Below are positions 7,903 to 55,445 of a stretch of DNA of 64,000 nucleotides, piece after piece. The stretch comes from Candidatus Nealsonbacteria bacterium (GTDB lineage Bacteria; Patescibacteriota; Minisyncoccia; Minisyncoccales; MHMH01). The stretch spans positions 179,317-243,316 of the forward strand of contig JACPGX010000005.1 of assembly GCA_016188865.1 (NCBI GenBank). The letters are read 5' to 3'. Each line of letters starts with the position of its first letter. Within the stretch, counting starts at the first letter, position 1. Both the position numbers and the translations under genes were made by a program. The notes below the pieces were generated by a model. It did no database searches and was not told where the DNA came from. It saw only the letters and a program-made list of their open reading frames with translations.

Positions 7903-8349
7903 ATGAAGGTAATTTTGCTCAAAGATGTAGATAAAATCGGGAAAAAATATGAAGTTAAAAATGTCTCCGACGGCCACGCCAGAAATCTTTTGATTCCCAA
8001 GGGCTTGGTAAAACCTGCCACCGACGAGGCTTTGGAATGGCTGGAAATACAAAAAGAAATTTTAAGGAAAAAAGCGGAGGATGATTTGAAAAAAACCGAA
8101 GGAGATGTTTCGGCTATTGACGGCATGGAAGTGGTGATTTTAGTCAAGGTTGGAGATGAGGGCCAATTGTTTGAATCAATAAATTCTCAAAAAATTTCTG
8201 AAAGATTGAAAGAATTGGGTTTTGATATTAAGAAAACTCAAATTACCCTGGAAAATCCGATTAAAGAGATTGGCGAATTCCCGGTAAAACTTCATTTCGA
8301 ACATAATTTAGAAGCCGAAATAAAAGTTATAGTAACTGAAGAGAAATAA
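7903..8349 (+). CDS. rplI: 50S ribosomal protein L9
   Basis: MKVILLKDVDKIGKKYEVKNVSDGHARNLLIPKGL is the bL9 N-terminal signature. Confidence 0.95.
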   Translation: MKVILLKDVDKIGKKYEVKNVSDGHARNLLIPKGLVKPATDEALEWLEIQKEILRKKAEDDLKKTEGDVSAIDGMEVVILVKVGDEGQLFESINSQKISERLKELGFDIKKTQITLENPIKEIGEFPVKLHFEHNLEAEIKVIVTEEK

Positions 8350-11868: not shown

Positions 11869-12837
11869 ATGAGAATAGCTATCATCGGAGCCGGCATTAA
11901 TGGACTTTATTTAGCTTGGAAACTTTCAGAAAAAGGCCACGATGTAACAGTTTTTGAAAAGAGAAATGCAATAGGCAAAGAAGCGTGTTCCGGGCTTTTT
12001 TCTGAAAGAATTTTGGATTTTATTCCTCAAGCTAGAACTTTGGTTGAAAATGAGATAAATTTTGCTTTGATTCATTTTCCCAAGAAAACTATTCGAGTTA
12101 ATTTTGTCCGGAAATTTTTTGTGATGAGCCACGCGGAGTTGGACAGGCTGGTCGCCCAATATACTCTGAGAACCGTTCTCGAGTCTAAAAATGTCTCGAG
12201 AACGGTTCTCGAGACACTAGAGAAAGAGTTTGACAAGATTATCGGCTGCGATGGGGCGCAGTCTGAAGTTAGAAAATATTTAGGATTGCCCGAACCGAAT
12301 TATCGTTTGGGCATTCTAGGGTTTGTTGCTTGCCCTGAGCGAGCGAAGCGAGTCGAATGGGTTGAGACTTGGCCGGTGAAAAATGGTTTTATTTGGAAGA
12401 TTCCCCGAAGAAACGAGCTGGAATACGGAATAATTGCCAATTTAAATGAGGCAAGAAAATTTTTTGATGATTTTTGTCTAAAAAAAAATCTCCAGCTTCA
12501 GAATATAAAATCAGCCTTAATACCGCAAGGGTTTTTAATTCCAAGAAATAATAAAGTCACCCTTTGCGGCGATGCCGCCGGGCTTACTAAGCCTTGGTCT
12601 GGTGGGGGAGTGGTTTGGGGACTGACGGCAGCTGATTTCCTCTTGAAAAATTTCCCGGATTTGCTAAAGTATCGTCAGACAGTGGGGAGATTTTTTCTGC
12701 CCCAGATCGTTCTTTCAAAAATAATTTTAAAGTTCGTCTATTTTCTGGGATTTAATTTCCCATGGGTTTTGTCTAAAAGAATGAAAATGGAGGGGGATTT
12801 TCTGCGATGGAAAAAACTGTTCAGCATCTTGGGATAA
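11869..12837 (+). CDS. FAD-dependent oxidoreductase (geranylgeranyl-reductase-like)
   Basis: N-terminal Rossmann motif MRIAIIGAGINGLYLAWKLSEKGHDVTVFEKR and GDAAG near the C-terminal third. Confidence 0.7.
   Translation: MRIAIIGAGINGLYLAWKLSEKGHDVTVFEKRNAIGKEACSGLFSERILDFIPQARTLVENEINFALIHFPKKTIRVNFVRKFFVMSHAELDRLVAQYTLRTVLESKNVSRTVLETLEKEFDKIIGCDGAQSEVRKYLGLPEPNYRLGILGFVACPERAKRVEWVETWPVKNGFIWKIPRRNELEYGIIANLNEARKFFDDFCLKKNLQLQNIKSALIPQGFLIPRNNKVTLCGDAAGLTKPWSGGGVVWGLTAADFLLKNFPDLLKYRQTVGRFFLPQIVLSKIILKFVYFLGFNFPWVLSKRMKMEGDFLRWKKLFSILG
12168..12213. repeat. Intragenic palindromic element, copy 2 (inside the FAD oxidoreductase gene)
   Basis: GAGAACCGTTCTCGAG (12168-12183), 11-nt spacer, CTCGAGAACGGTTCTC (12195-12210): exact 16-nt inverted repeat. 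Encodes LRTVLESKNVSRTVLE. Confidence 0.85.
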
Positions 12838-16816: not shown

Positions 16817-17233
16817 ATGAGTAAAATTACTACAATTTTAATTATCATTATCGGAGTCTTGATTGCTGGCTGGTTTTTGGTTTCCAGGCTTTCTCTCTCC
16901 GATTCATCGAAAATCGTGGCAAGATCCGGCCTCCACTGGCACGCTACTTTAAACATTAAAGCAGCAGGTGAACCCGTGATCATTCCGGGCGGCATTGGCC
17001 TTGAAGGGCTTACCCATAATCCAATGCACACGCACGACATTGATAATGTTATCCATATGGAATATAATGGTTTAGTCAAGGAAAACGACTTGAAGTTAGG
17101 GAAATTCTTTGAAATTTGGGGCAGGAAATTTGAGGAGGATAGGAAAATGCTGGTTAACGGCAAAGAAAATTTAGAATTCGAAAATTACATAATGCGCGAT
17201 AGCGACAAGATTGAAATAATTTATGGCAAATGA
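16817..17233 (+). CDS. Hypothetical His-rich anchored protein
   Basis: The tracked ORF starts (TTG 16790) inside the hairpin. ATG 16817 gives MSKITTILIIIIGVLIAGWFLV (TM helix), then HWHATLNI...HNPMHTHDIDNVIHMEY. Confidence 0.55.
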   Translation: MSKITTILIIIIGVLIAGWFLVSRLSLSDSSKIVARSGLHWHATLNIKAAGEPVIIPGGIGLEGLTHNPMHTHDIDNVIHMEYNGLVKENDLKLGKFFEIWGRKFEEDRKMLVNGKENLEFENYIMRDSDKIEIIYGK

Positions 17234-18419
17234 ATCATGGCTTAGAGATATTCAAATAAGGACAAAAGGCGTGCCTGTTTCTGGAGGCAGATCCAATAAA
17301 CTAGGCAAAATCACTTTTGATGATTTGGTTTTTGTGCCGGCTCAATTATCAAAAAGACCGGTGGATTATTTTAAAGAGAAAATCAGTTCGAGAACACTTC
17401 TCGGACGATTGAGCAAAAAACCGATTGAAATCGAAACGCCCATAGTAATCGGCGCCATGTCTTTTGGCGCCTTATCGCGGGAATCAAAAATCGCTTTAGC
17501 TAAGGCCTCAACTTTAGCGGGCAGCATAGAAAATACCGGAGAAGGCGGCATGCTGCCCGAAGAAAGAGAATTTTCAAAAAAACTGATTATCCAATACTCA
17601 ACTGGCAGATTCGGCATTTCAGAAGAAGTTTTAAAAAAAGCAGACGCCATAGAAATTAAAATCGGTCAAGGAGCAAAGCCCGGCCAAGGCGGCTTGCTAA
17701 AAAAAGAGAAAGTGACCGAAGAGATCGCCCGGATTAGAAAAGTTCCTATGGGCGAAGATGTTCATTCGCCGGCTTACCATCCCGATATTAAAGATATTGA
17801 TGATTTAAAAAAGAGAATTGATTGGTTGAGGGAATTAACCGGTGGAGTGCCTATTATTTTAAAATTGGGGGCAGGAGATGTTGAAAACGATATTAAACTG
17901 GCTATCAAAGCCAATCCGGACATTATCGCTGTTGACGGAATGGAAGGCGGAACCGGGGCTGCTCCGGAAATAATGCTCAATGAAGTGGGCATTCCTGCGG
18001 TGGCTGCCTTAGTCAGAGCAAGGCGAGTTTTAGATGAATTAAAAGCTCCACAAGAGTTTTGGATAGGCGGCGGTTTTAATCACGGCGGAGATTTTGCAAA
18101 AGCTTTGGCCTTAGGAGCTGATGCGGCTTTTATTTCCTTTTCTTTATTGGTGGCGATGGGCTGCAATTACTGCAAACTATGCTATTTAGGCAAATGTCCG
18201 AAAGGTTTGACTACGCAAGATCCGATACTTAGAGAAAAATTAAACATCGAAGAAGCATCTCAAAATGCTGCCAATTACATAAAAAACTGCACTGAAGAAA
18301 TCAAAATGGCTGCCGGCGCCTGCGGAAAAAGCGATATCCATGATTTATCCAAAGAAGACTTAAGGGCGATGACTTTGGAGATGGCAAGAACGACCGGAGC
18401 TAAGTTAATCTCAGATTAA
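17223..18419 (+). CDS. Glutamate synthase (GltB FMN-domain)-related protein
   Basis: KIGQGAKPGQGGLL signature of the GltS FMN-binding domain; C-terminal Cys cluster. Confidence 0.8.
   Translation: MANESWLRDIQIRTKGVPVSGGRSNKLGKITFDDLVFVPAQLSKRPVDYFKEKISSRTLLGRLSKKPIEIETPIVIGAMSFGALSRESKIALAKASTLAGSIENTGEGGMLPEEREFSKKLIIQYSTGRFGISEEVLKKADAIEIKIGQGAKPGQGGLLKKEKVTEEIARIRKVPMGEDVHSPAYHPDIKDIDDLKKRIDWLRELTGGVPIILKLGAGDVENDIKLAIKANPDIIAVDGMEGGTGAAPEIMLNEVGIPAVAALVRARRVLDELKAPQEFWIGGGFNHGGDFAKALALGADAAFISFSLLVAMGCNYCKLCYLGKCPKGLTTQDPILREKLNIEEASQNAANYIKNCTEEIKMAAGACGKSDIHDLSKEDLRAMTLEMARTTGAKLISD
17389..17403. repeat. Possible single-unit or relic copy of the intragenic palindrome
   Basis: CGAGAA-CAC-TTCTCG inside the GltS-related gene (encodes SRTLLG). 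Only one unit, so it could be chance. Confidence 0.3.
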
Positions 18420-20990: not shown

Positions 20991-22484
20991 ATGCAAAAAG
21001 AAACAGTGACAAAAAGACAAAAACAAGTTTTGAAAATCATTTATAATAGTTTGGTTAATGCTGGTTTTCCGCCTTCTTTCAGCGAACTTAAAAAAAAATT
21101 AAAAATTTCCTCTAACCAATCGCTTTTAGATATTTTTTCAATTTTAGAGAGAAAAAATTTAATAAAAAGGGAAGAGGGCTCTGCTCGTGGTATCAAAATT
21201 TTAAAAGCCGGGTATGAGGCCATTTCAGCTCCGCCCTTAGCGCCAATGGTGGGCATCACTTCAGCTGGCAGCTTTACCGAAGCCATAGAAGAAATTGACG
21301 CTTGGCAGCCATTATCAAAAGACGTTGAAACTATTGCCGAGGATGTGATGATCGTACGTGTTATTGGAGACTCCATGATTAATGCAGATATTAAAGATGG
21401 AGATTTTATTTTATTTAAAAAAACAAATGATTTTTCTTCTGGAGATATAGTTTTAGCTCAAACACCAGACGGGACAACCGTAAAAAGATTTATTTCCCAA
21501 GATAAGCCGCCTTATGCTTTTTTGAAACCGGAGAATCAGAAGTATTCCAACATTCCATTTACTGAAGATATGCGATTAATCGCCAAAATGGTTAGGAAGA
21601 ATAATATGGCTCAGGAAGCAAGCAAGAAAGATACCAAGGCGTTAGAGCCGTATTACGATAAGCCTAAATTTAAGCTTTATCAGGCGGATTGCTTAGATAT
21701 CCTTGTAAATATTCCCGAGAATTCGGTTGATATGGTTTTTGCCGATCCACCCTATCTTTTATCTAACGGAGGTTTTTCCGTCCACGCAGGGCGGCGAGTG
21801 AGCGTCAACAAAGGCGAATGGGATAAAAGTAATGGATTAAAAAAAGATTTTATATTTCACCTTGATTGGATAAGGGCCGCAAAACGCGTTTTAAAACCAG
21901 GCGGTACAATTTGGATTAGCGGTACCTATCACTCGATATATCAATGCGGTTTTGCGCTTCAGGCCGCTGGATTCCATATCCTTAATGACATTTCATGGTT
22001 CAAACCGAACGCTTCGCCTAATTTAAGTTGTCGCTTCTTTACCGCCAGCCATGAAACTTTAATATGGGCCAGAAAAGACAAAAAAGCAAAACATACTTTC
22101 AATTATGATTTGATGAAAAATGGTAATTGGCCAGAGGATTTTATAAAAAAACCTAATTTACAAATGCGTTCGGTATGGGCTATGGGATCGGAAAATCCAG
22201 AGATGGGCGCGATTTGGACTATGGGAACACCAAAAACAATAGAAAAAAGATTCGGTAAGCATCCGACTCAAAAACCGGAGGATTTGCTAAAACGTATAGT
22301 GCTTGCTAGTACGAATAAAGGCGACTTGGTCGTAGATCCTTTCACGGGGAGCTCGACTACTGGTATCGCCGCCTATCTTTTGGGCCGGAATTTTATCGGC
22401 ATTGATACAGACAAAAATTACCTAGATTTATCGATAAAAAGATTTGAGGAGTTGTATAAAAATATTAAAAGTAAATTATTATAA
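20991..22484 (+). CDS. In-frame fusion: full LexA-like repressor (wHTH + S24 peptidase) with a beta-class N6A/N4C DNA methyltransferase
   Basis: Residues ~1-205 align to LexA: KRQKQVLKIIY...SARGIKIL, cleavage-site-like VGITSAGSF, catalytic GDSM Ser and TVKRF Lys. Residues ~206-497 carry DPPY (motif IV) followed later by VVDPFTGSSTTG (motif I). No stop between the two parts; internal Met at the junction (NNMAQEASK). Confidence 0.8.
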   Translation: MQKETVTKRQKQVLKIIYNSLVNAGFPPSFSELKKKLKISSNQSLLDIFSILERKNLIKREEGSARGIKILKAGYEAISAPPLAPMVGITSAGSFTEAIEEIDAWQPLSKDVETIAEDVMIVRVIGDSMINADIKDGDFILFKKTNDFSSGDIVLAQTPDGTTVKRFISQDKPPYAFLKPENQKYSNIPFTEDMRLIAKMVRKNNMAQEASKKDTKALEPYYDKPKFKLYQADCLDILVNIPENSVDMVFADPPYLLSNGGFSVHAGRRVSVNKGEWDKSNGLKKDFIFHLDWIRAAKRVLKPGGTIWISGTYHSIYQCGFALQAAGFHILNDISWFKPNASPNLSCRFFTASHETLIWARKDKKAKHTFNYDLMKNGNWPEDFIKKPNLQMRSVWAMGSENPEMGAIWTMGTPKTIEKRFGKHPTQKPEDLLKRIVLASTNKGDLVVDPFTGSSTTGIAAYLLGRNFIGIDTDKNYLDLSIKRFEELYKNIKSKLL

Positions 22485-22489
22485 AATAT

Positions 22490-23020
22490 ATGAAAAAGGG
22501 AGGAATCGGTGGAGCTAATACAAAAACAGGATTATATTTTGAGGGTAAGGTAGATTTTTTGTCTTTCATTAAAAAACAGAAGAATTATACTGTTAAGGGA
22601 AATGAAATATTTTATAACAAAGAAAGCGTTGCCCTCTCATTCAAAAAGAATAGTCTATACGAGTATTTGACAAAGAGGGGGATAAATTATAAGAAGTTTA
22701 TTTCGAAAAAGTTATTACCCGACGATGCGGTTTTCGTTATTATAAATAACACTTTTTTTATTATCGAAATAAAATTTCAGAGAGTGGCGGGTTCAACCGA
22801 CGAAAAATTGCAAACTTGCGATTTTAAAATTAAACAATACAGAAAACTCCTATCGGAATTAAATGTGGAAGTGAAATTCATTTACATCCTTAGTTATTGG
22901 TTTAAAAAACTGGAATATAAAGACGTGCTTGATTACATCATTTCCGTAGAGGGTTGTTCATATTACTTTAATTATTTACCTTTGAAAAAACTTGGTCTGC
23001 CGGTACCGGAAAATAATTAA
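22490..23020 (+). CDS. Putative type II restriction endonuclease (PD-(D/E)xK)
   Basis: 176 aa, 5 nt downstream of the methyltransferase. Motif PDDAVFVIINNTFFIIEIKFQ fits D...ExK. Confidence 0.55.
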   Translation: MKKGGIGGANTKTGLYFEGKVDFLSFIKKQKNYTVKGNEIFYNKESVALSFKKNSLYEYLTKRGINYKKFISKKLLPDDAVFVIINNTFFIIEIKFQRVAGSTDEKLQTCDFKIKQYRKLLSELNVEVKFIYILSYWFKKLEYKDVLDYIISVEGCSYYFNYLPLKKLGLPVPENN

Positions 23021-23244: not shown

Positions 23245-23904
23245 ATGTACAAGCTAAGCCCGTCGGATTTTGCTTTTCTCTACGAGGAATGCAAACTCTG
23301 TTATTGCCTGAAAATTAAACATGGAATTTATCAGCCGAGTATGCCGATGCCCGGAGTTTTTTCGGCTATAAATACCAGACTGCAGGGAAGTTTAATCGGT
23401 AAAAATTTAAAAGTTTTGTCTGAAAACTTGCCGGAAGGCGAAGTTATAAGCCAGGAAGGCTGGGTTGAATCCATACCGGTTCCGGAGACTTCCCTTTATA
23501 TCAAAGGAAAATACGACCTTTTGGCAAAAAATCATGACGGCACTAGCACTTTAGTAGATTTAAAAATCAGCCAGGCGGCGGAAGATAAAATAGAAAAATA
23601 CAAAACCCAGCTTGCGGCATATAAATTTGCGTTAGAAAATCCAATAGCTGGGGAGCCGATAAAGATCGCCAGACTTGGCCTTTTGCTTTTTTATCCGGAC
23701 ACGGTTTCCTTTGAAGGCGGAGTGGCTAAATTTAATTTTCCTCCAAAATGGCTGGAAGTTCCTATTAATGAGAGCAATTTTTTAAGCTTTATAAAAGACA
23801 TTGATAAACTTTTATCCGGTCCTATGCCGGAAGAAGGTAAAACTTGCAAATGGTGCCAATATCGGCATGTCGGGGAAAATCTCGTCCACGATCAAAAGAA
23901 ATAA
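23245..23904 (+). CDS. PD-(D/E)xK nuclease, Cas4/RecB-like with Cys cluster
   Basis: N-terminal CKLCYC, core GKYDLL...LVDLKISQ...YKTQLAAY, C-terminal CKWCQY. Confidence 0.65.
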   Translation: MYKLSPSDFAFLYEECKLCYCLKIKHGIYQPSMPMPGVFSAINTRLQGSLIGKNLKVLSENLPEGEVISQEGWVESIPVPETSLYIKGKYDLLAKNHDGTSTLVDLKISQAAEDKIEKYKTQLAAYKFALENPIAGEPIKIARLGLLLFYPDTVSFEGGVAKFNFPPKWLEVPINESNFLSFIKDIDKLLSGPMPEEGKTCKWCQYRHVGENLVHDQKK

Positions 23905-23922: not shown

Positions 23923-24762
23923 ATGAAAAAACAAGCGAGAAACAAGGCGATAGCGATCTTTGGTGGCAAGCAAATTCGCCGTCATTGGGACGAGAAAAAT
24001 GAGCTTTGGTATTTTTCGGTGGTAGATGTGGTTGGGGCGTTGAGTGCGAGCGATGATCCTAGAAATTATTGGAAGGTGCTGAAAAATCGTTTGAAGCAAG
24101 AGGGGAGCGAGGTGGTTACAAAATGTAACCAACTGAAAATGCCGGCTTCCGACGGCAAATACTATCTTACTGATGTTGCCGATACTGAAATCATACTTCG
24201 GCTTATACAATCAATTCCTTCGCCTAATGCCGAGCCATTTAAGCTTTGGCTGGCGCGAGTAGGATATGAAAGAATAGAAGAAACCGAAGATCCAGAAAAA
24301 GCTATTCGGCGGGCACTAGCTACCTATTTAAAGAAAGGTTATTCTAAGGAATGGGTTAATTTGCGCCTCAAAAGTATTGAAATCAGAAAGGATTTAACCA
24401 ATGAATGGCAGGAAAGAGGCGTTAAGACAAATGATGAATTTGCCATTTTGACGGATGACATTTCTTTTGCATGGGCCGGCTTAAAGACTAAGGATTATAA
24501 AAAGCATAAAGATTTAAAAAAAGAAAATCTGAGGGATAATATGACAAATTTGGAATTGGTTTTAAATATGTTGGCGGAAACGGCGACAACGGAAATTTCC
24601 AAAAAACGCGAACCAAAAACATTTCCGCAAAATCGAAAAGTGGCTCGTGAAGGCGGCGGTATAGCCGGTAACGCCCGAAAACAAATTGAAGCAAAGACGG
24701 GCAAGCCGGTGGTAAGCGGGTTAAACTTCAAAAAAATTCAGGAGCAGAAAAAATTAAAATGA
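23923..24762 (+). CDS. Bro-N domain / DinD-like DNA-damage-inducible protein
   Basis: N-terminus IRRHWDEKNELWYFSVVDVVGAL...RNYWKVLKNRL (Bro-N-like). C-terminal half resembles E. coli DinD (from memory). Confidence 0.55.
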   Translation: MKKQARNKAIAIFGGKQIRRHWDEKNELWYFSVVDVVGALSASDDPRNYWKVLKNRLKQEGSEVVTKCNQLKMPASDGKYYLTDVADTEIILRLIQSIPSPNAEPFKLWLARVGYERIEETEDPEKAIRRALATYLKKGYSKEWVNLRLKSIEIRKDLTNEWQERGVKTNDEFAILTDDISFAWAGLKTKDYKKHKDLKKENLRDNMTNLELVLNMLAETATTEISKKREPKTFPQNRKVAREGGGIAGNARKQIEAKTGKPVVSGLNFKKIQEQKKLK

Positions 24763-25066: not shown

Positions 25067-25525
25067 ATGGATAAAAAAGAACTGTTAAATTTTTTATTAA
25101 AAGCTAGGACTAAGACTTATGCTGGAGACGGCGGCAGTGTTACTCCGGCCCTGAAAGGATCAAAGCAATTGGAATATAAGGAGGAGAATTGGTTATATAG
25201 AGATGTCTATTATTTCGGGAAAGGTATTTTCACCGGATTGGAGGCAATCTATTATCAAGATAAGCCGGTTTGGTCCATGTCTTATTACGGAAACTTCAAG
25301 AAGATGACCGAAGAAGAGATAGACAAAATTTTACGCAAAGCGCTTAGGGAAAACAGCAAAACTGCAAGAACTTGGAAGCTAGTTAAATGGCAGAAAGACG
25401 GCTACGAGTATGTCTGCCGGTCCGATTTCGGTAAGTCGGTAGATGACTTCGGCGGATCCGAGAAGGTATCTAAAAGCGGGAAAGATGTTTATTCTTTCTT
25501 TTACGCCGCCGGTCTTATCGTATAA
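25067..25525 (+). CDS. DUF5680-like protein
   Basis: KARTKTYAGDGG...WLYRDVYYFG...KPVWSMSYYG pattern recalled from DUF5680. Confidence 0.45.
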   Translation: MDKKELLNFLLKARTKTYAGDGGSVTPALKGSKQLEYKEENWLYRDVYYFGKGIFTGLEAIYYQDKPVWSMSYYGNFKKMTEEEIDKILRKALRENSKTARTWKLVKWQKDGYEYVCRSDFGKSVDDFGGSEKVSKSGKDVYSFFYAAGLIV

Positions 25526-25539
25526 AGTCATCATGACGC

Positions 25540-25564
25540 ATGTTAGACATTCAATGTCTAACAT
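25540..25564. repeat. Perfect 25-nt palindrome ATGTTAGACATT-C-AATGTCTAACAT upstream of recQ
   Basis: 12-nt exact arms, sharing TGTTAGAC/GTCTAACA with the palindrome at 2265-2287. Confidence 0.8.
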
Positions 25565-29604: not shown

Positions 29605-30201
29605 ATGAAAAACTACGGTGAAATTAAAAATTTGCCTTTTAAAGAATTAAAAGGTATTTCTCAAAAGACGATTGATATTCACTGGGGCAAGCTTTATCAG
29701 GGATATGTTAAGAAATGGCAGGAAATCATGGAGAAATTGGAGAAAATTGACCTAACCCAAGCCAATGCCACTTACTCCGAAGCAAGAGAATTGAAAGTAG
29801 AACAAACATTCGCCGCTAATGCCGTGCTTTTGCACGAAGCTTATTTTGACATATTGGGGGGAGATGGGAAACCCGGAACGGAAAAAATTATTGAAACTAT
29901 TGCCAGAGATTACGATTCTTTTGACAATTGGCTGACTCATTTTAAGGCTTTGGGAATGGCCTCTCGCGGCTGGGTAGTTTTAGCTTATGATTTTAACGAT
30001 GGAAAATTAAGAAATTACATAGCCGATGCCCATAATCTTTACGGCATTTGGGGAGCGGCCCCTATTGTTGTTTTAGATATGTACGAGCATGCTTATTTTA
30101 TAGACTTTGGCTCTGATAAAAAAGCTTACATCGAGGCCTACTTTCAAAATCTCAACTGGCAGAAAATAGGGGATAAGTATAATAAAATTGTAGGTAAATA
30201 A
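29605..30201 (+). CDS. Fe/Mn superoxide dismutase
   Basis: HWGKLYQGYV and DMYEHAYFIDFG motifs. Track start 29593 is TTG; first ATG is at 29605. Confidence 0.85.
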   Translation: MKNYGEIKNLPFKELKGISQKTIDIHWGKLYQGYVKKWQEIMEKLEKIDLTQANATYSEARELKVEQTFAANAVLLHEAYFDILGGDGKPGTEKIIETIARDYDSFDNWLTHFKALGMASRGWVVLAYDFNDGKLRNYIADAHNLYGIWGAAPIVVLDMYEHAYFIDFGSDKKAYIEAYFQNLNWQKIGDKYNKIVGK

Positions 30202-30355
30202 AATGAAAGGCGGTAAAAAATCATCTCAAAAAGTAATCTTTATAAAAAAAGATTTTCAATTGCCCAAAACGACAGTTAAATTTCGTTCGAGCAATGCAGC
30301 CCCGCGCTTAGAGCACCGCAGGGTAGGGGAATAGGCTATTAATATTGTGCGACAT

Positions 30356-31312
30356 TTAGTCTTTGAGATTTTTACCGCTATGATACTGGCGGTGAACATC
30401 TCTTAGGTGTTTGTTGGTTACGTGAGTATAAATTTGGGTGCTGGTGATGCTACGGTGCCCCAAGAATTCTTGAATAGTTCTTAAATCAACTCCTTGTTCC
30501 AATAAATCGGTTGCCATGCTGTGTCTAAGTGTGTGGGGAGTGGTAAAAATGGGTATTCCGGACAGAATATCATATTTTTTAAGCAATCTTTCTATTGATC
30601 TGGGAGTCAAACGTCTGTCAGATCCTTTTTGGGTTTTATAGTTTATAAACAAGGGTTTTTCTTTATCTTGGCGGGCGATTAAGTATTTTTTTATCCATAA
30701 AAGAGCTCTTTCGGAAAAATAAACCGTTCGGGGATAACTGCCTTTGCCGATTATGCCCAGCTCCAAGTCTTTTTTATCTTTTATATTAGCAAACTGTTCC
30801 TTATTAAGGTTGGTTAATTCAGCTATTCTCAAGCCGGTAGAAAAAAGAGATTCCAAAATGGCCCTGTCGCGCAAGCCATCGGGCTTTCTGGTATCGGGAG
30901 CCAATAAGAGCTTCTCGATCTGTTCTATAGTAAGGAATTTAACAGTTTTTTGGGCTCTGGCATCCTTTGGGAGGGCTATTTTCTCCGGAGGCAGTGAAAC
31001 TATGTCTTTAGCTATAAAATAGCCCAAAATGGCCCTTAAAGCGATAAGATAGTAGCTTTGAGTACTCTTCTTTAAGGGAAGGCCTTTCTTGGCCTGGGAA
31101 CGGGATAAGTGCAGCCTGTAAGCCCAAACATCCTCGGAAGATAGCTCATGCGGCTTAAGGCTGGTTTTTTGAGTGGATTTTAACCAATATACTAATTTAT
31201 CGAGATATCTTTTGTAGTTCTCTTGTGTTTTATCCGACAAGCCTTTTTCCACTTCGCAGTAATCCAAAAAGTCGGGGATATGATTTATTATTGATTTTTC
31301 CGAATGACTCAT
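30356..31312 (-). CDS. xerC: Tyrosine recombinase, XerC/XerD family
   Basis: C-terminal HTLRHSMATDLLEQGVDLRTIQEFLGHRSITSTQIYTHV (R..HxxR..Y catalytic pattern) and an N-terminal SAM-like domain. Confidence 0.85.
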   Translation of the reverse strand: MSHSEKSIINHIPDFLDYCEVEKGLSDKTQENYKRYLDKLVYWLKSTQKTSLKPHELSSEDVWAYRLHLSRSQAKKGLPLKKSTQSYYLIALRAILGYFIAKDIVSLPPEKIALPKDARAQKTVKFLTIEQIEKLLLAPDTRKPDGLRDRAILESLFSTGLRIAELTNLNKEQFANIKDKKDLELGIIGKGSYPRTVYFSERALLWIKKYLIARQDKEKPLFINYKTQKGSDRRLTPRSIERLLKKYDILSGIPIFTTPHTLRHSMATDLLEQGVDLRTIQEFLGHRSITSTQIYTHVTNKHLRDVHRQYHSGKNLKD

Positions 31313-31447
31313 AAATTTTACTAATATTAGGGGAGTAAGTAAGCCCCTTCCACAGTGTCTCTTTATCGCTATTATGCGACGCTACTTATATTCATAATAA
31401 CAGGCCCGAAAGGGCCGTCAAGTACCTCCCCTATGATAATGAGGGGG

Positions 31448-35461: not shown

Positions 35462-36658
35462 TTACATCGCACCGTACTTTTTCACAAATTTCTTAAATAG
35501 ATCACCTCTTTCAGCATAATCTTTAAAAATTCCGAAACTTGGCGAAGCCGGTGAAAGCAGGCATATTTTTCCTTTCCCGGTATATTTATAAGCCGACTTA
35601 ATCGCTTCTTTCATATTATCCGTAAAAACATACGAGAACCGTTCTCGTATGTTTTGCGGTACGGTTTGCCAGATGCGCTGGCCGGTGGTTGGGAATAAAA
35701 TTAAATTTTTGACTTTGCTTTTTGCGATTCTTTCAGCCAATTTTTTAAAGTTTAATCCTCTGTCATAACCGCCCAAAATAAGTGTTTCGACTTTATCTCC
35801 CAAAAAATCTAAGGCCTCAATAGCAGTTTCTGGCACCGTTGAAAGAGAGTCATTATAAAATTCGATTCCTTTGAATTTACCCGTATATTCCAATCTGTGC
35901 GGCAGGGTTTTTAGTCTTTTTGGCATTGGCAACTTAAATATTTTGGCTACAGCCTCTGCGGCAGCCTTGTTCAGTTCATAATACTTGCCAGTGATTGGAA
36001 TTTTTTTAGCTTTTGATTTTTCGGCAATCTTCCTGACTAAAAGATCTTCGCTGTTATAGATTAAATAATCTTTTTTAGTTTGGTATTTAGTAATATTGGC
36101 TTTAGCTCCGACATATTCCTCAAAGCTCTTATAATAATCCAAATGTTCGGGATAAATATTTAAAAGTACTGCAATATGCGGCGATTTTTTCAAGTTATAA
36201 AGCTGGTGGGACGATAGTTCATAAACAAAAATATCATCCTTTTTAGCTTTTAGTAAAGAAGTTAATGCGGGTTTTCCGATATTGCCCACCAAATGAGCTT
36301 TCAATCCCCCGCTCTTGAGAGTTTGATAAATCCAATAAGAAGTCGTGCTTTTTCCCTTAGTGCCAGTGATTCCTATAATTTTTCCCGGACAATTTTCAAA
36401 AAAAATCTTCGTCTGCGTCGTAATCTTCCATAGGTGAAACCTATGGATTTTTTTGAATGAGATGCCGGGAGACTTAATGATAATATCGTAATCTTTAAGC
36501 TTCTTGAGATAGTGCTTATCAAATTTTTGGTCGGCAATATCTATTTTCTTTTTAGGGAATATTTTTTTAAAAAATCTTAAAGTATCCTGTCCTTCCCTGC
36601 CGAATCCAAGAATTGCTATTTTCTTATTTTTATATTTTTTAAAACTATTGACAAACAT
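35462..36658 (-). CDS. murD: UDP-N-acetylmuramoylalanine--D-glutamate ligase (MurD-type)
   Basis: True start taken at ATG 36658 (MFVNSFKKYKNKKIAILGFGREG). GITGTKGKSTT P-loop. The 103 extra N-terminal codons in the tracked ORF run through a stop-poor G+C-rich island. Confidence 0.85.
   Translation of the reverse strand: MFVNSFKKYKNKKIAILGFGREGQDTLRFFKKIFPKKKIDIADQKFDKHYLKKLKDYDIIIKSPGISFKKIHRFHLWKITTQTKIFFENCPGKIIGITGTKGKSTTSYWIYQTLKSGGLKAHLVGNIGKPALTSLLKAKKDDIFVYELSSHQLYNLKKSPHIAVLLNIYPEHLDYYKSFEEYVGAKANITKYQTKKDYLIYNSEDLLVRKIAEKSKAKKIPITGKYYELNKAAAEAVAKIFKLPMPKRLKTLPHRLEYTGKFKGIEFYNDSLSTVPETAIEALDFLGDKVETLILGGYDRGLNFKKLAERIAKSKVKNLILFPTTGQRIWQTVPQNIRERFSYVFTDNMKEAIKSAYKYTGKGKICLLSPASPSFGIFKDYAERGDLFKKFVKKYGAM
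35625..35655. repeat. Intragenic palindromic element, copy 3 (single unit, inside murD)
   Basis: AAAACATACGAGAAC-C-GTTCTCGTATGTTTT with exact 15-nt arms. Encodes QNIRERFSYVF. Confidence 0.8.
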
Positions 36659-36676
36659 AATATTATATGTTATGAT
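36648..36676 (+). promoter_or_regulatory. Near-consensus promoter driving the G+C-rich orphan gene
   Basis: TTGACA (36648-36653), 17-nt spacer, TATGAT (36671-36676). Overlaps the murD start codon region on the other strand. Confidence 0.65.
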
Positions 36677-36733
36677 GTATTTGTCGAACTGGGGCCATCT
36701 GCTTCGGCAAATATTTCTAAAGGAGGTATTAAA

Positions 36734-37090
36734 ATGGCCATCGAAAAAGGAACATTGGTAATGGTGGAGGGGGCGGTGGTTCATATTACAACTATGAACC
36801 GAGAGGGTCGCCTCTATGAGCGCGACAAGCGTGTTCCTCCGGGGCGGCCCATCTTCGGTACCGTAGAAGGAACCTACGAGGTTCAGAAAGCGGTATTCGG
36901 GGAGAACGAAGAAATCGTCAAACCGGCCAAGTTCGTTGCTTTCGTTCAGTGGGACGGACCCAAGCATCGGACATCCATCCTTCCGTTAGAGAAACTCCAG
37001 CCGGCAATCAACGACGTTCTCAACCCCGCGCCGCTCGTGGAGGCGCCGAAAAAATCACCCCGCCGGCGAAAAACCACGAAAAAGCAGTAA
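36734..37090 (+). CDS. G+C-rich orphan protein (118 aa, basic C-terminal tail), antisense insertion in the dcw cluster
   Basis: AAGGAGG Shine-Dalgarno sequence 7 nt upstream of the ATG. Hand counts: 36781-36840 is 31/60 G+C and 36841-36900 is 35/60, versus 17/60 for 36541-36600 in murD. Ends KKSPRRRKTTKKQ. Confidence 0.65.
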   Translation: MAIEKGTLVMVEGAVVHITTMNREGRLYERDKRVPPGRPIFGTVEGTYEVQKAVFGENEEIVKPAKFVAFVQWDGPKHRTSILPLEKLQPAINDVLNPAPLVEAPKKSPRRRKTTKKQ

Positions 37091-37101
37091 ATCTGCGATC
37101 C

Positions 37102-37130
37102 AAGGCTCTGACCATTATGGTCAGAGCCTT
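37102..37130. terminator. Bidirectional hairpin terminator
   Basis: AAGGCTCTGACC ATTAT GGTCAGAGCCTT (12 bp, perfect). Contains the stop codon of the convergent minus-strand gene. Confidence 0.7.
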
Positions 37131-38383
37131 ACCTGTTTTAAAAGATACGGTATTTTGCCTAATTTTCTTGCTTCTTCAAAAGATAGCAAAGCCGCTTCTC
37201 TGCTTTCTTGGTAAGTACCCACACACTCAAAGGGCTTGTGTATTCCCTCCCCTATCAAAGATTTCATAAGAGGTAATAATTTTTTATCTTGCAATAAATC
37301 TTTTCCGAAAATTTTTAGCAAATCTTTATTTCTTAACAAGGGATACAAGCTTATATACACAAAAAGGCATTTAGGGCATTTGCCGCACCAGCGCTCTCCT
37401 ATTTTAGAACCAAGATTGCAGCTGGAGAATACGGAAAAATATTTTGGATATTTAGCAAACATTTTAGAAATTTCCAATTCGCCGTATTTTCTTAAATAAC
37501 TGAAATAATTGATATTTTTTGCCAGATATTTTTTGCAGTAATATTTAAACATTTTTTCAAATTCTGAACTTTTGGCCCATTGATGGTTTATAATCCTTCC
37601 GAGATATTTAACGTTTCCCTCATTGGCGCTTTTTTCATTTGAAAAAGCGATATTTTTATAGCCGAATAATACAGCGCAGAAAACAGACAAAAATGACAGA
37701 AGCGCGGTAAACGGCGTATGGCCGTTTAGCAAAGCACCCTCTTTATTTAATTCCAATAGTTTCGGATCAATTTTTCTCTCAACGATAATGGGATTTTTTA
37801 TTCCAGCTACCCTTAAAACATCTTTCGCGGCCTTCGTGGGATTAACCGTAAAGGCATTTATTTTTTTTCTGGCCCTTCTTAGTTTCTCTAGTGTAACAAT
37901 AGAATCTCTCCCTCCTCCCATCGGCACCAAATGTTTATTTTTTAGCTTAATGTCGGTACGCCTTAATTCAACCATGGGATAATTAAGGCGATTAGAGGCA
38001 ATGGTCAAAAAATTTGATTTACGCCAGTTTATTTTATTTTCGTAGAAAAACTGTCCCATGCCCTTAATTATTAAATTTTTCCACCAGCTAATTTGTTCTT
38101 TATTCAAATAGCCAGCTTCAATAATAATTTTCGGCGAACAAGTTGCTTTCCAGTAACTAAGCATTTCTATCAATCCCACATGAAATATTAAATTATCGAG
38201 AACGTTTCTCGTAGGGACGAGATGCGTTCTCGATAATTTTTTAATGATAATTTGCGGCCGAAAACTGATACCGGGCGGTATCTCGAAAAAGAAGGAGATT
38301 TTTAAATCTCCACCCTTTATTTCGTAGCCGTAATTTCTATATATAAACCTAGGATATTTTTTTCTTAAAATTTTTGATTTCAT
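37121..38383 (-). CDS. PP-loop-like ATPase family protein; candidate MurL-type UDP-MurNAc-L-Ala-L-Glu epimerase (hypothesis)
   Basis: Start taken at ATG 38383 (ATGA overlap with the mraY stop). VPMGGGRDS resembles the SGGxDS PP-loop. C-terminal CGKCPKC. Position between mraY and murD. Confidence 0.4.
   Translation of the reverse strand: MKSKILRKKYPRFIYRNYGYEIKGGDLKISFFFEIPPGISFRPQIIIKKLSRTHLVPTRNVLDNLIFHVGLIEMLSYWKATCSPKIIIEAGYLNKEQISWWKNLIIKGMGQFFYENKINWRKSNFLTIASNRLNYPMVELRRTDIKLKNKHLVPMGGGRDSIVTLEKLRRARKKINAFTVNPTKAAKDVLRVAGIKNPIIVERKIDPKLLELNKEGALLNGHTPFTALLSFLSVFCAVLFGYKNIAFSNEKSANEGNVKYLGRIINHQWAKSSEFEKMFKYYCKKYLAKNINYFSYLRKYGELEISKMFAKYPKYFSVFSSCNLGSKIGERWCGKCPKCLFVYISLYPLLRNKDLLKIFGKDLLQDKKLLPLMKSLIGEGIHKPFECVGTYQESREAALLSFEEARKLGKIPYLLKQVRL
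38190..38239. repeat. Intragenic palindromic element, copy 4
   Basis: AAATTAT-CGAGAACGTTTCTCG-TAGGGA-CGAGATGCGTTCTCG-ATAATTT. Encodes KLSRTHLVPTRNVLDNL on the minus strand. Confidence 0.85.
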
Positions 38384-39450
38384 CCCAGTAATCTTATGGC
38401 TATTCCCATAATAGCTGCAATAACCCCGATAATCCAAAATCTCATGGTTACTTTATAATGCGGCCAACCCTTGGCTTCAAAGTGGTGGTGGATCGGCGAA
38501 GCTAAAAAAACTTTTTTATGGCGGAATTTTTTGGAAAGCAACTGCAAAATAACCGAGCCAGATTCTATGACTAATAAAAATCCGATAATTGGCAATACTA
38601 AAACAGAATCCGTCAGGAAAGACACTACCGTTAAGGTTGCCGTCAGGCCCATAATGCCGGTTTCTCCCATATAGAAACGGGCGGGAGGTATGTTATACCA
38701 CAAGAAAGCTAAAATAGCGCCTAATATTGCTGCGCAAAAAGCCGCTAAATTCACTTGTCCTAAAAATAAAGAAATTACCGCAAATGCCCCAAAAATTGAA
38801 GCAAAAACGCCCCCCGCTAATCCGTCTAGTCCGTCTATCACCCCTCCGGAATAAGTCGCCATAGTCACTAAAATAAATAAGGGAATATATAAATATCCTA
38901 TTTCCATGTCTCCGATGCCCGGGATATGCAGGGTGGATGTTTCTAATTTTGCAAAAAACCACCAAGCCCCAATAAGCCCGATTAGGGCCATAATTATTAA
39001 TCTTTTTTTAAGCCCCAATCCCCCGCCGATGTACTTACCCTTGCCCCTTACCTGAAGGATATCATCAATTAACCCCAAAAAAGCTGCGGAAATTAAAGCA
39101 AAAAATGGCAGCCAGGTTTGCGATCTTGAAAGGAAGTTCAATTTTTGAAGCCACCACACGTCGGTTGTTTTTGCCAGAATGAAAAGCGGAACGGCTAAAA
39201 TCGAAGGGACCAGCCAAATTAAAAGTCCTCCGAATCTGGGAACTTGAGTTTCTCCTGTTGAATGGAATTTCTGAAAATACCAAAGTGTCTTGCCATCTAT
39301 CGCCTTTTGCCTGACTTCTTTGCGCCAGAGTTTATATTTGTATAAATAACGAGTCAATAAGGGCGTTAAACTAAAAGCAATCAAGAAACTGAAAGTTCCT
39401 ATGGCAAAAATTTTTATAGCGTCAATGGCTGCATTGGGAAGATAGAACAT
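38380..39450 (-). CDS. mraY: Phospho-N-acetylmuramoyl-pentapeptide transferase
   Basis: Polytopic 356 aa with DDxxxxxG and SPIHHHFE motifs, in dcw context. Confidence 0.9.
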   Translation of the reverse strand: MFYLPNAAIDAIKIFAIGTFSFLIAFSLTPLLTRYLYKYKLWRKEVRQKAIDGKTLWYFQKFHSTGETQVPRFGGLLIWLVPSILAVPLFILAKTTDVWWLQKLNFLSRSQTWLPFFALISAAFLGLIDDILQVRGKGKYIGGGLGLKKRLIIMALIGLIGAWWFFAKLETSTLHIPGIGDMEIGYLYIPLFILVTMATYSGGVIDGLDGLAGGVFASIFGAFAVISLFLGQVNLAAFCAAILGAILAFLWYNIPPARFYMGETGIMGLTATLTVVSFLTDSVLVLPIIGFLLVIESGSVILQLLSKKFRHKKVFLASPIHHHFEAKGWPHYKVTMRFWIIGVIAAIMGIAIRLLG

Positions 39451-47474: not shown

Positions 47475-48728
47475 TTATATTTTCATTTTTTCTAATTCAT
47501 CGGTCAATAGGTAGATATCCCCAGCCCCCATAATGATAATAATTTGGCCGCTTTGCATGTTAGCCTGCAAGTAATTAATGATTTTATCTTTCGGCAAATA
47601 AATAACCTTCTTTTTATTTATCGCTTGAACTAATTTTTGAGAATTTATTTGTTTTTTGGTTGCAGTTTCTTCTCTGCCTGCAACATCATATATGTCGGTA
47701 ATTATAATTCTGTTAACTGGAGCAGTTTTAAATGCCTTTACAAAATCATCGAACAAATAATAAGTTCTCTGATATTGATGGGGCTGATAGACGCACCAGA
47801 TTTCTTTTTTAGGCCATTTTTCTCTAGCCGCTTTCAGGGCAGCCATTACTTTTTGGGGATTATGCCCGTAATCGGAAACTAAAATAAATGGTTTTGTTTT
47901 AATAATTTCAAATCTTCGCCACGCGCCTTTGTATTTAGACAGCGCTTTAAGAGAAATTTTATCAGTAATTTTCAGAGCCCTAGCAGCCGTCAAAGCCAAA
48001 GAAGCATCATAAACATTGTGTCCACCGGGAACTTTTAGTATTTTTTTTAATTTTAAATTATCATTTTGATTTTTGATATTTGAATTTTGAATTAAGATGC
48101 CACCTTTTGGCAGGTGGCCAATAAATTTTTTAAATGATTTTTTAACGTTTTTAAGATTTTTATAATAATCTAAATGATCGGCTTCGATATTTGTTACAAT
48201 AATCATCTCCGGCCAATAGTTTAAAAATGATCCAAAATGCTCATCTGCTTCAATAACGAGAACGTTTCTCCCGCGGAGAAGCGTTCTCGCGACATTACGT
48301 TTAGGTTCGCCGCCCGCCCTAAAATTACCATTACCAAACTCTTTAAGTTTGGTGCCAATTATTACAGTCGGATCAAAACCAGCCTTAATCAGAATTAGAG
48401 AGAGCATGGCAGTTGTCGTGCTTTTGCCGTGTGTTCCGCAAACAGCTATTGTAAAATGCTGTTTGGTTAGCTCCCCCAGCGCCTCCGGATAGCTCATCGT
48501 GTGCACCCCGCGGGGGTGCACAGTTACTGCGGGACTATAAATGGTTAAATTAGCGTCTTTCTTCGCTACATTCTTGCCGATAGTGATTTTGGCCCCTCTC
48601 TTTTTAAGGAGATTGGTAATTTCTGAAAAAACCAAATCAGAGCCGCTGACTTTGTGGCCTTTTGCAAGATAATATTGGGCTAAAGCTGAAACTCCTATCC
48701 CGCCTATGCCGAGAAAGTGAACCTTCAT
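47475..48728 (-). CDS. murC: UDP-N-acetylmuramate--L-alanine ligase
   Basis: KVHFLGIGGIGVSALAQYYLAKGHKVSGSD, GTHGKSTTT, and NIEADHLDYY. Confidence 0.95.
   Translation of the reverse strand: MKVHFLGIGGIGVSALAQYYLAKGHKVSGSDLVFSEITNLLKKRGAKITIGKNVAKKDANLTIYSPAVTVHPRGVHTMSYPEALGELTKQHFTIAVCGTHGKSTTTAMLSLILIKAGFDPTVIIGTKLKEFGNGNFRAGGEPKRNVARTLLRGRNVLVIEADEHFGSFLNYWPEMIIVTNIEADHLDYYKNLKNVKKSFKKFIGHLPKGGILIQNSNIKNQNDNLKLKKILKVPGGHNVYDASLALTAARALKITDKISLKALSKYKGAWRRFEIIKTKPFILVSDYGHNPQKVMAALKAAREKWPKKEIWCVYQPHQYQRTYYLFDDFVKAFKTAPVNRIIITDIYDVAGREETATKKQINSQKLVQAINKKKVIYLPKDKIINYLQANMQSGQIIIIMGAGDIYLLTDELEKMKI
48257..48289. repeat. Intragenic palindromic element, copy 5 (inside murC)
   Basis: CGAGAACGTTTCTC-CCGCGG-AGAAGCGTTCTCG. 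Encodes ARTLLRGRNVLV just before the conserved IEADE. Confidence 0.85.
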
Positions 48729-54605: not shown

Positions 54606-55445
54606 TTACTTAAGATATTTTGCTTTGGCAATATTATGTTCGTCTAGGGTTTTTGTGAATATAGTTTCTCCACTAGGCTTCGAAAGATAATACCAATAAG
54701 AACTATCTTTAGGATAAAGAGCGGCCAGAATACTCTCCAGCCCCGGGTTGGAAATTGGCTTTTCGGGGAGACCATAATGTTCGTAGGTCCACATGGCAGC
54801 ATCCACCTGCAGAGGCATGCCGACTTTCAGTCTCTTCCAAAGAACGCCCGAGACTAATGCTTTTTCTTCTTTGGTTTTTACCTCTTTTTCTAAAATAGAA
54901 GCCGCAATGACTATTTCCGGGGTTATTTTAAGGTCAGCTGTTTTTTTATCAAAATTATCTGTCATCATTTTAATTATTTCTGCTTCGTTTGCTCCGTAAT
55001 TAATCTCGTAAGTATCCGGGAATAAATAACCTTCGTACTCTCTAAATAGGTCGAGAACCGTTCTCGACTCAATTGAGTCGAGAACGGTTCTCGACAGTGT
55101 TTGAACAATTTGTTCGGAGGTGAAACCCTCGGGGATTGTGATTTTAGCTTTTGCAATATCTCCGGAAGATAATTTTCCAGCTATCTGCGGAATGTTCATA
55201 GATGGGGAAAGAAAGTAGCCGCCTGCCTGAAGCTTGTGAGCTGTACCCGAAATTAAAACATAAAAATTAAAAAAAGGCCCCCACCAAACTAACCCATCTT
55301 TTTGTAAGTTTGACGCTATTTCTTTAGATCCCTCCCCTTTCTCTGCGCGAAAAACAACTTGTTTTTCCAAACCAAAATTACGAGGCAAAAATATGCCTCC
55401 GGCTAAAACAGCTATTAGAATTAGTATAATAAAATATTTTTTCAT
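54606..55445 (-). CDS. mltG: Endolytic murein transglycosylase MltG (YceG-like)
   Basis: N-terminal anchor, EGYLFPDTYE, and ASILEKE. Confidence 0.85.
   Translation of the reverse strand: MKKYFIILILIAVLAGGIFLPRNFGLEKQVVFRAEKGEGSKEIASNLQKDGLVWWGPFFNFYVLISGTAHKLQAGGYFLSPSMNIPQIAGKLSSGDIAKAKITIPEGFTSEQIVQTLSRTVLDSIESRTVLDLFREYEGYLFPDTYEINYGANEAEIIKMMTDNFDKKTADLKITPEIVIAASILEKEVKTKEEKALVSGVLWKRLKVGMPLQVDAAMWTYEHYGLPEKPISNPGLESILAALYPKDSSYWYYLSKPSGETIFTKTLDEHNIAKAKYLK
55050..55095. repeat. Intragenic palindromic element, copy 6 (inside mltG): perfect 46-nt palindrome
   Basis: GTCGAGAACCGTTCTCGAC-TCAATTGA-GTCGAGAACGGTTCTCGAC. Encodes SRTVLDSIESRTVLD on the minus strand. Confidence 0.9.

Follow-up and report, generated by a model that had tools for sequence, protein, structure and literature searches.

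In-frame palindromic repeats within housekeeping genes of Candidatus Nealsonbacteria, a possible REP/REPIN-like hairpin family

The DNA considered here is a stretch of 64,000 nucleotides (the window) from Candidatus Nealsonbacteria, a member of the candidate phyla radiation (CPR), in which mltG and six further genes each contain a short palindromic element that is translated as part of the protein. The element is built from a true unit of 15 nt, the palindrome CGAGAA-N3-TTCTCG, often in the form CGAGAAC-N-GTTCTCG, with arms of 6 bp and a 3-nt centre which reads CGT, GCG, CCG, CGG or CAC in the window. Twelve units with 0-1 mismatch each are found at seven loci, corresponding to a density of 0.19 units per kb, and a search of the window at 2 mismatches returns no units beyond these. 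Five of the loci are inverted doublets, in which two inverted units and a short spacer form a hairpin of 33-50 nt, and two are single units; the elements overall measure 15-50 nt and every locus lies within an intact gene (Table 1). An earlier note on this DNA had named six copies inside intact open reading frames (ORFs), including a perfect 46-nt palindrome in mltG and a copy with exact 15-nt arms in murD, and had described most of them as two mutually inverted units, all of which holds. Two sites that it took for possible relics are better described otherwise: 17389-17403 is a perfect unit on sequence of native length, and 10849-10870 contains one heptamer only, where the orthologue is just 40% identical.

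The frequency of the motif in the window is far above chance. The heptamer CGAGAAC occurs 17 times in the window against 3.9 expected, a number that none of 100 shuffles reaches, and of the paired form CGAGAAC-N0-6-GTTCTCG there are 4 occurrences where 0.00 are expected. The palindromes are not assembly artefacts, because six independent Logan assemblies made from other sequencing runs are 100% identical across the pyrG copy; one of these also spans the copy in the flavin adenine dinucleotide (FAD) oxidoreductase gene. The PyrG and MurC proteins of the window are identical to the database proteins MBI2450642.1 and MBI2450684.1. Membership of a known RNA family is rejected, as Rfam finds one tRNA only in the window and nothing at the repeat sites. 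The window is 94% coding, seven of seven loci in genes is therefore the chance outcome, and a preference of the repeats for genes is rejected.

The unit occupies the tip or the middle of a longer stem, and the outer portion of this stem varies from copy to copy. In type-2 doublets the centres are perfectly complementary (CCG/CGG). In the type-1 doublets of pyrG, murL and murC, CGAGAACGTTTCTC is always paired with GAGAAGCGTTCTCG, so that a single T:G pair results on one strand and C:A on the opposite one. Eight type-1 copies from four genes and five genomes have the asymmetric arms and the internal mismatch in common, and the type-1 sequence of 33-36 nt is found, mismatch included, in unrelated genes. 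Each doublet folds into a single long hairpin (z = -5.6 to -10.3), and the single unit of the gltB-like gene as a weak one (z = -2.7). Pairing continues past the conserved core in a copy-specific manner, with a mean of 2.0 extra pairs against 0.33 expected and at least two in 17 of 37 copies. The spacers, too, are often palindromic, and the unit centres are complementary. This stem extension fits either selection for the stem or palindrome-perfecting mutation by fold-back or template-switch copying. As the earlier note had read it, the copies are translated in all three phases (RTVL/SRTVL, ENxSR/ENVSR and RERFS) and the core is free of stop codons in every frame; the encoded peptides include ARTLLRGRNVL and SRTVLDSIESRTVLD. 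The three type-1 copies of the window are all on the plus strand, yet are found to either side of the switch in GC skew at ~30 kb, and both type-1 orientations occur 3.5 kb apart in the related locus L127, so among these copies no orientation rule relative to transcription or replication is found.

Table 1. Palindromic elements of the window and their host genes, which were named from Pfam, NCBIfam and PDB searches
Host gene	Gene (strand)	Element	Architecture	Encoded peptide
pyrG	8349-9995 (+)	9365-9400	type-1 doublet, CGAGAACGTTTCTCG-CCGGAG-CGAGAAGCGTTCTCG; 16-bp hairpin, one T:G pair on + strand	
geranylgeranyl-reductase-family FAD oxidoreductase	11869-12837 (+)	12167-12216	type-2 doublet, (T)GAGAACCGTTCTCGAG-TCTAAAAATGT-CTCGAGAACGGTTCTCGAG(ACA)	LRTVLESKNVSRTVLET
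gltB-like (glutamate-synthase-domain)	17223-18419 (+)	17389-17403	single unit, CGAGAACACTTCTCG	SRTLLG
murD	35462-36967 (-)	35625-35655	single unit, 8-bp copy-specific stem extension, AAAACATA-CGAGAACCGTTCTCG-TATGTTTT	QNIRERFSYVF
MurL-like epimerase (murL)	37121-38437 (-)	38190-38239	type-1 doublet, 7-bp stem extension, AAATTAT-CGAGAACGTTTCTCG-TAGGGA-CGAGATGCGTTCTCG-ATAATTT	KLSRTHLVPTRNVLDNL
murC	47475-48728 (-)	48257-48289	type-1 doublet, CGAGAACGTTTCTCC-CGC-GGAGAAGCGTTCTCG	ARTLLRGRNVL
mltG	54606-55445 (-)	55050-55095	type-2 doublet, perfect 46-nt palindrome, GTCGAGAACCGTTCTCGAC-TCAATTGA-GTCGAGAACGGTTCTCGAC	LSRTVLDSIESRTVLD

Orthologues of the host genes reveal a range of states, namely filled, empty, single-unit, flipped, partly deleted and duplicated (L numbers denote related loci, retrieved gene by gene from closer relatives, and P numbers denote protein homologues). 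In MurC the clade consensus reads FRAG-KSK-YLVIEADE and the window protein FRAG-GEPKRNVARTLLRGRNV-LVIEADE, an addition of 13 residues. An element at the same codon is present in L137 (33/33 nucleotides identical), L139 (31/33) and L140 (30/33, decaying through three substitutions) and in L136, where the right arm is tandemly duplicated; only the right arm remains in the P0244 protein, and L138 is an empty site. L140 carries an extra CGAGAAC unit at another site of murC. In an AlphaFold2 model with a mean pLDDT of 91 the MurC insert is predicted to form a short helix between two strands, with a local confidence of 83. PyrG of the window and of L127 is 7 residues (21 nt) longer than the clade consensus Y-EKNPR-LLKELK, and that of the window is about 8 residues longer than the Thermus thermophilus protein; unit 2 falls on the native Y/F-E-K-R-S-R. 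In L128 and L129 the pyrG sequence is of native length and contains one unit only (CTACGAGAACCGTTCTCGTAG and a variant with 1 mismatch), and L141, at 82% amino acid identity, has no unit. The pyrG doublet of L127 is flipped, because it matches that of the window better as its reverse complement (34/36) than directly (30/36). MltG of the window is ~6 residues longer than the clade consensus, and L046 and L045 (64-65% amino acid identity) have an exact or 14/15 unit at the same codon. Unit-type peptides occur at that place in the MltG proteins P0002, P0004 and P0035, and examples among the orthologues are TRTVL, TRSVL and TRTLL.

The remaining copies change the length of their hosts by -1 to +5 residues and overwrite a variable loop. 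The FAD oxidoreductase copy lies in such a loop with about one residue more than L128 and L141, the copy of the gltB-like gene causes no length change relative to the L127 orthologue (SRTLLG vs AKTIIG), and the murD copy lies in a variable part of the C-terminal domain and makes the protein ~3-5 residues longer than MurD proteins of solved structure. The murL copy shows approximately no net insertion against 47 homologues: one arm together with its apparent flank, GTTCTCGATAATTT, codes for VLDNL, a motif seen as VLDN(L/F) at the corresponding position of many homologues; the second arm is the reverse complement of the VLDNL arm and stands in place of variable residues. The spacer TAG(A/G)(T/G)A and the flank ATAATTT are common to the murL copy of the window and the FAD oxidoreductase copy of L127. 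The elements thus both insert and overwrite, with a tendency to occupy sites at which the native sequence already resembled a half-site. The view of the earlier note, that the copies are in-frame insertions, is supported at murC and pyrG, where the extra residues it had named and the presence/absence polymorphism it had asked about are both seen. Most copies are not clean insertions, namely those in murL, the gltB-like gene, the FAD oxidoreductase gene and murD.

The MurL-like gene itself lies between murD and mraY. Its match to the MurL model (UDP-MurNAc-L-Ala-L-Glu epimerase) has E = 8e-85 and falls short of the equivalog cut-off. Over 1,200 relatives are obtained with it at E <= 1e-30, and many of these are fused into proteins of 800-1,000 residues. 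An L140 ORF was considered as a MurL orthologue and rejected; this neighbouring ORF is unrelated.

The loops that hold the CGAGAAC elements also hold other palindromes. Among four relatives the FAD oxidoreductase loop contains three different ones, a type-2 doublet in the window, a type-1 doublet in L127 and the unrelated ATGAAACGGGGTC-G-GACCCCGTTTCAT in L128 and L141. A second MurC loop (residues ~69-76) contains a perfect palindrome in the window, TGTGCACCCC-GCG-GGGGTGCACA at 48500-48522, which encodes VHPRGVH; in relatives this loop contains a CGAGAAC unit (L140) or a 52-nt doublet of a TGTTAGAC...GTCTAACA unit (L137), and repeat-like peptides are seen there as well. The family of the L137 doublet has three further members between genes of the window. 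In L045 the mltG unit is directly followed by a further palindrome. Several hairpin-repeat families thus coexist and make use of the same tolerant loops.

Further palindromes were observed alongside these. A third type, with the core GGG(A/G)TC-N-GA(C/T)CCC encoding G-S-D-P, is found at 7241-7267 in L128, 4506-4532 in L141 and 7739-7767 in L045, in the FAD oxidoreductase loop of the first two and the mltG loop of the last, exactly the places occupied by CGAGAAC elements in the window. A second repeat family has TGTT...AACA ends, as in TGTTAGACGT-C-GGACGTCTAACA, and accounts for two of the intergenic hairpins after the tRNA-Ala gene and one before a RecQ-like gene. Perfect hairpins lie at 2218-2242, 2265-2287, 2316-2345 and 2348-2372, which form the intergenic cluster after tRNA-Ala, and at 25540-25564. 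The TGTT...AACA family is also seen in L137 murC as perfect doublets of 52 nt (259-310) and possibly 50 nt (715-764), and as a single copy in L139 (2649-2671). In other CPR lineages, unrelated short inserts such as DPSTSSGQG, DGSTNSPQG, NPNPKYKILNTK and KKLLRVVPRLVPPGSA are found at two MurC loop positions (P0265, P0329, P0297, P0304, P0314, P0322, P0338, P0354 and P0357), and from the protein alignment these may represent further intragenic repeat families.

The individual copies are conserved to a degree that their host genes are not. At four-fold degenerate sites the window and its relatives are 0.37-0.43 identical, which corresponds to saturation, and overall nucleotide identity is ~0.66-0.77. 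The murC hairpin is nevertheless the top-scoring 33-nt segment of the gene, and all 33/33 segments in the comparison with L137 overlap the element; likewise the mltG unit is the sole 15/15 segment in the comparison with L046. The inserted murC codons directly upstream of the hairpin have diverged (RNV, TNT, TNV, RNF) while the palindrome has stayed constant, which suggests one old insertion with constraint on the palindrome alone. Selection on the amino acids cannot explain this constancy, because 11 third positions of the murC element are identical where an identity of ~0.54 per site is expected (a rough P of ~1e-3 from a single pair). The long-term constancy of the nucleotides implies that something still reads the palindrome, via selection or via repeated conversion from other copies.

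The family is confined to certain CPR lineages. A scan for the doublet pattern in one genome per species, with a chance expectation roughly estimated at ~0.03, returned 44 loci, of which 32 are CPR inverted doublets with complementary centres and 12 are direct repeats from Bacteroidales, Prevotella or Tannerella. The doublet occurs in a Portnoybacteria metagenome-assembled genome (MAG), a Paceibacterota MAG and several MAGs labelled Saccharibacteria, and the copies in these other CPR genomes are partly intragenic and partly intergenic. In Nealsonbacteria VGKE01 there are at least 22 near-identical copies within a larger repeat with conserved flanks, many of them at contig ends. Closer relatives of the window have 1-4 units per 2-18 kb, with the exception of the close relative L141, which has no unit in 7 kb. 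As a negative control, more distant CPR DNA around MltG genes (at most 54% identity), obtained in a metagenome scan, contains 0 units in 684 kb. An origin in phages is not supported, as a scan of 2.9 million viral contigs yields 0 doublets. The Bacteroidales matches were rejected as the same repeat, since they are direct tandem arrays and hence of different architecture.

In these arrays, from Bacteroidales, Prevotella and Tannerella MAGs, CGAGAA-N3-TTCTCG-like units such as CGAGAAGTTTTCTCGGAACTC recur with a period of ~21-22 nt, and the half-sites are the same as those of the CPR doublets (L004, L013, L014, L016, L028, L033, L039, L040, L042 and L043). In VGKE01 (loci L002-L036) the CGAGAAC doublet is the centre of the larger repeat, which reaches from about -40 to +180 and in which a second hairpin starting CGTCATTGCGAGGAGTGAAGCGACGAAGCAATC follows. 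By its sequence this second hairpin looks like a repetitive extragenic palindrome (REP) with a CGTC tag (PMC3733652).

Given its architecture and distribution, there is about an even chance that the element represents a lineage-restricted family of REP/REPIN-like hairpin repeats; it works like a REPIN family, without being assigned as a member. It is proposed that new copies would arise via single-stranded hairpin intermediates and that copying would start at native sequences resembling a half-site, such as GTTCTCG in murL and CTACGAGAA in pyrG. Seeding of this kind predicts that the native VLDN codons would read GTTCTCGATAAT in element-free genomes. One option is templated copying of a strand-switch or conversion type, which would overwrite a stretch of variable loop and extend the stem with local sequence, and another is a trans-acting, hairpin-recognising enzyme of the HUH/Y1 kind, like the REP-associated tyrosine transposases (RAYTs). 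The near length-neutral copies, taken together with the native half-sites, argue for a conversion-like or template-switch copying step. In a genome that is 94% coding, the only survivors would be in-frame, stop-free copies in tolerant surface loops, which would explain the odd peptides (SRTVL, ENVSR, RERFS) in housekeeping enzymes.

A number of observations weigh against such a family. Among the ~70 ORFs of the 64-kb window there is no Y1/HUH transposase or transposase of any other type, and none lies beside the copies in L001, L019 and L044; a flanked transposase (REPtron) was rejected at these loci, L019 having an S1-domain protein and L001 and L044 nothing relevant. The copies inspected have no consistent unpaired GTAG or CGTC tag. 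No flanking direct repeat or target-site duplication is present at any of the seven loci, nor is one seen between filled and empty murC sites, and with junctions of this sort a clean transposon-like insertion with target duplication is rejected. The small length changes of -1 to +5 residues at murL, the gltB-like gene, the FAD oxidoreductase gene and murD fit conversion or an origin in situ better. Conservation of individual orthologous copies is not predicted by a purely selfish repeat. In a crude neighbour-joining tree of MurC without support values the carriers are not monophyletic, and repeated gain or loss, or recombination, may have taken place at murC.

Exact nucleotide conservation at orthologous codons, in genes with saturated synonymous sites, would also be expected of a functional genomic signal, in which a conserved CPR protein would read CGAGAAC-N-GTTCTCG as duplex or hairpin, written into tolerant loops; this is possible but rather unlikely. 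The signal could serve DNA uptake or recombination, replication or repair, or the organisation of the chromosome, and the palindrome would lie in the loops of essential proteins because there is almost no non-coding DNA. A genome-wide host or molecular-drive signal read by a dimeric protein, akin to the DNA uptake sequences (DUS) and uptake signal sequences (USS) or to a HIP1-like motif linked to a DNA-modifying or DNA-binding protein, is likewise doubtful; it would accumulate mainly by substitution and recombination at tolerant protein positions, with the doublets as secondary inverted duplications. It is in agreement with the single units in the gltB-like gene and in pyrG of L128 and L129, which involve no indel, with the unchanged net length of murL, and with a lineage-specific motif whose core is kept across several CPR groups while its surroundings vary. 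Uptake signals occur as inverted pairs and at permissive coding positions, and CPR bacteria depend on DNA uptake. However, the density of 0.19 units per kb compares with roughly 1 per kb for DUS/USS, five of the seven loci are doublets, and murC and pyrG have gained 13 and 7 residues. The stem extensions seen in 17 of 37 copies are unexpected for a simple binding motif. Whole 33-36-nt elements with a common mismatch are found at unrelated loci, and in VGKE01 the doublet is part of a larger amplified repeat. The LexA-methylase gene of the window (20991-22484) is preceded by an operator-like palindrome, CCGACC-ATTC-GGTCGG, which is unrelated, and the element was on this account rejected as the binding site of that fusion protein. 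In the CPR MAG of L044, an ORF at 1626-2498 lies ~1.1 kb from two element copies; recognised by eye, it is presumably DprA/Smf-like (DNA processing, competence), and its proximity, although relevant to the idea of an uptake signal, is probably coincidence.

Two further explanations do without transfer or without a signal in the DNA. Fold-back or template-switch errors at quasi-palindromes could generate the elements as a purely mutational by-product with neither inter-locus transfer nor function, and much of the local detail agrees with this: the stem extensions and spacers differ between copies and appear to be of local origin, the arms of the murL copy are the VLDNL codons and their reverse complement without a change in length, the mltG copy is exactly X plus reverse-complement(X), pyrG shows a transition from single unit to doublet, and variants with duplicated or deleted arms exist. 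Such errors leave unexplained why the same 15-nt core is found at every locus (chance ~0) and why eight type-1 copies have a mismatch in common, and they account neither for the lineage restriction nor for nucleotide conservation across saturated divergence. Moreover, a general excess of intragenic perfect palindromes is not supported, with 3 loci against 1.2 +/- 1.1 expected once the family is removed. As the whole story this explanation is quite improbable, but fold-back or template switching is probably a contributing step in stem growth and doublet formation. The hairpins might instead act in the mRNA as RNase III sites, stabilisers or translation-pause sites that tune cell-wall and nucleotide-synthesis enzymes, as the strong predicted hairpins, the conserved nucleotides, an RNase III gene at 885-1574 and the location of four of the seven loci in peptidoglycan genes would allow. 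That excess, however, reflects the dcw cluster lying in the window. The strand with the wobble or mismatch is sense in pyrG of the window and the FAD oxidoreductase gene of L127 and antisense in murC, murL and L127 pyrG, the pyrG copy is flipped between orthologues, the hairpin is missing from the same genes in the close relatives L138 and L141, and copies are intergenic in other genomes, all of which makes a role in the mRNA very unlikely.

The likeness to REPs and REPINs, on which the preferred reading as a REP/REPIN-like family is based, includes short palindromic units, inverted dimers that form one long hairpin, many dispersed copies, sub-families, persistence in a lineage, amplification in one genome (VGKE01) and the use of palindromic targets. 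Intragenic REP dimers that encode 20-30 amino acids and the insertion of REPs into palindromic targets have been described, the former in Opitutus and Rickettsia, where the Rickettsia palindromic elements RPE-4 and RPE-6 are CGTC-tagged REPs (PMC3733652). REP units measure ~20-40 bp, and the gene for the RAYT, a single copy, has the repeats on its flanks. Long-term persistence of REPINs in a lineage is reported in a further study (10.1101/2022.05.22.493013). The CPR family differs from REPs, which have an unpaired GTAG/CGTC tag, in having no tag and a fully symmetric core of 15 nt; by inspection, several copies have CTA...TAG flanks, which pair with one another and are located 3' of the stem, opposite in polarity to REP tags. 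It differs furthermore in its variable outer stem, in that every copy of the window is in a gene and several overwrite native sequence, in that no RAYT is seen in the 64-kb window, and in having a CPR bacterium as its host.

The parallel with Rickettsia palindromic elements (RPEs) that the earlier note had drawn is apt in part. Like RPEs, the Nealsonbacteria elements are palindromic repeats which are translated in-frame in several phases within housekeeping genes and add residues in tolerant surface regions (murC +13, pyrG +7). Residues are likewise added at mltG (~+6), unlike at murL (~0), the gltB-like gene (0) and the FAD oxidoreductase (~+1); at murD the change is +3-5. RPE-1 is 100-150 bp long. 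The Nealsonbacteria elements are REP-sized (31-50 nt) and tag-free, and a sequence relationship to RPEs is not expected; most of them hardly change protein length, and at the nucleotide level orthologous copies are conserved and show no decay as selfish relics. With DUS, USS and HIP1 they have in common that they are short, lineage-specific motifs at permissive positions of coding regions in all frames, are conserved at orthologous sites and can arise without indels (the mltG unit, the pyrG singles and the gltB-like unit). They differ in a density that is ~five times lower, in mostly paired palindromic units with copy-specific stems, in the predominance of doublets, in some real insertions and in the recurrence of whole 33-36-nt elements. 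Miniature inverted-repeat transposable elements such as Correia and Nezha are also small, non-autonomous, dispersed repeats able to land in genes, but the Nealsonbacteria repeats are several-fold smaller and have no distinct terminal inverted repeats, no target-site duplication and no related autonomous insertion sequence that was seen. Double-hairpin elements are known from Allomyces. Coding palindromes have been described in mitochondrial genes of Nematomorpha (PMC6649704). These organellar cases resemble the present one in their perfect or near-perfect inverted repeats within coding sequence, the translation of both arms and the two-hairpin architecture; they are much longer (up to 284 bp) or belong to another genetic system, without the 15-nt core or evidence of relatedness. 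The earlier note was aware of no such family in CPR-like genomes, and in the literature searched there is indeed none for CPR, Patescibacteria or Nealsonbacteria, nor a paper quoting the sequence. Intragenic palindromic repeats as such are already known, and what is unusual here is the symmetric 15-nt core with a variable stem, the overwriting mode and the strong conservation of orthologous copies.

Two other regions of the window were observed in passing. The 497-residue ORF at 20991-22484 (+) combines a LexA DNA-binding domain, an S24 self-cleaving peptidase domain and a CcrM-like N6/N4 DNA methyltransferase domain, and its upstream palindrome is located between the -35 and -10 boxes of a sigma-70-like promoter. 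The genes that follow encode a small unknown ORF (22490-23020), a PD-(D/E)XK nuclease (23245-23904), a Bro-N protein (23923-24762) and a DUF5680 protein (25067-25525). Judged by its domains, the region could be a damage-inducible modification or defence islet. At ~30 kb (30000-31400) gene orientation and GC skew change sign and the cumulative skew is maximal, and a gene for a XerD/XerC-like tyrosine recombinase lies at 30356-31312. This region may be the replication terminus; no dif-like site is apparent by eye in 30190-30365.

Streamlining and a scarcity of repeats are considered typical of CPR/Patescibacteria genomes. In this groundwater Nealsonbacteria bacterium with its tiny genome, essential enzymes of cell-wall and nucleotide synthesis bear translated hairpin repeats, and in murC the repeat is the best-conserved DNA of the gene, at a place where the protein is least conserved. 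In practice, assemblies break at the repeats, as in VGKE01, and CPR protein families acquire spurious 'low-complexity' inserts; the repeats could also serve as lineage markers. The series that leads from no unit to a single unit on native codons and on to the doublet, together with flipping, arm loss and arm duplication, can show how repeats are born and spread in a genome without intergenic space.

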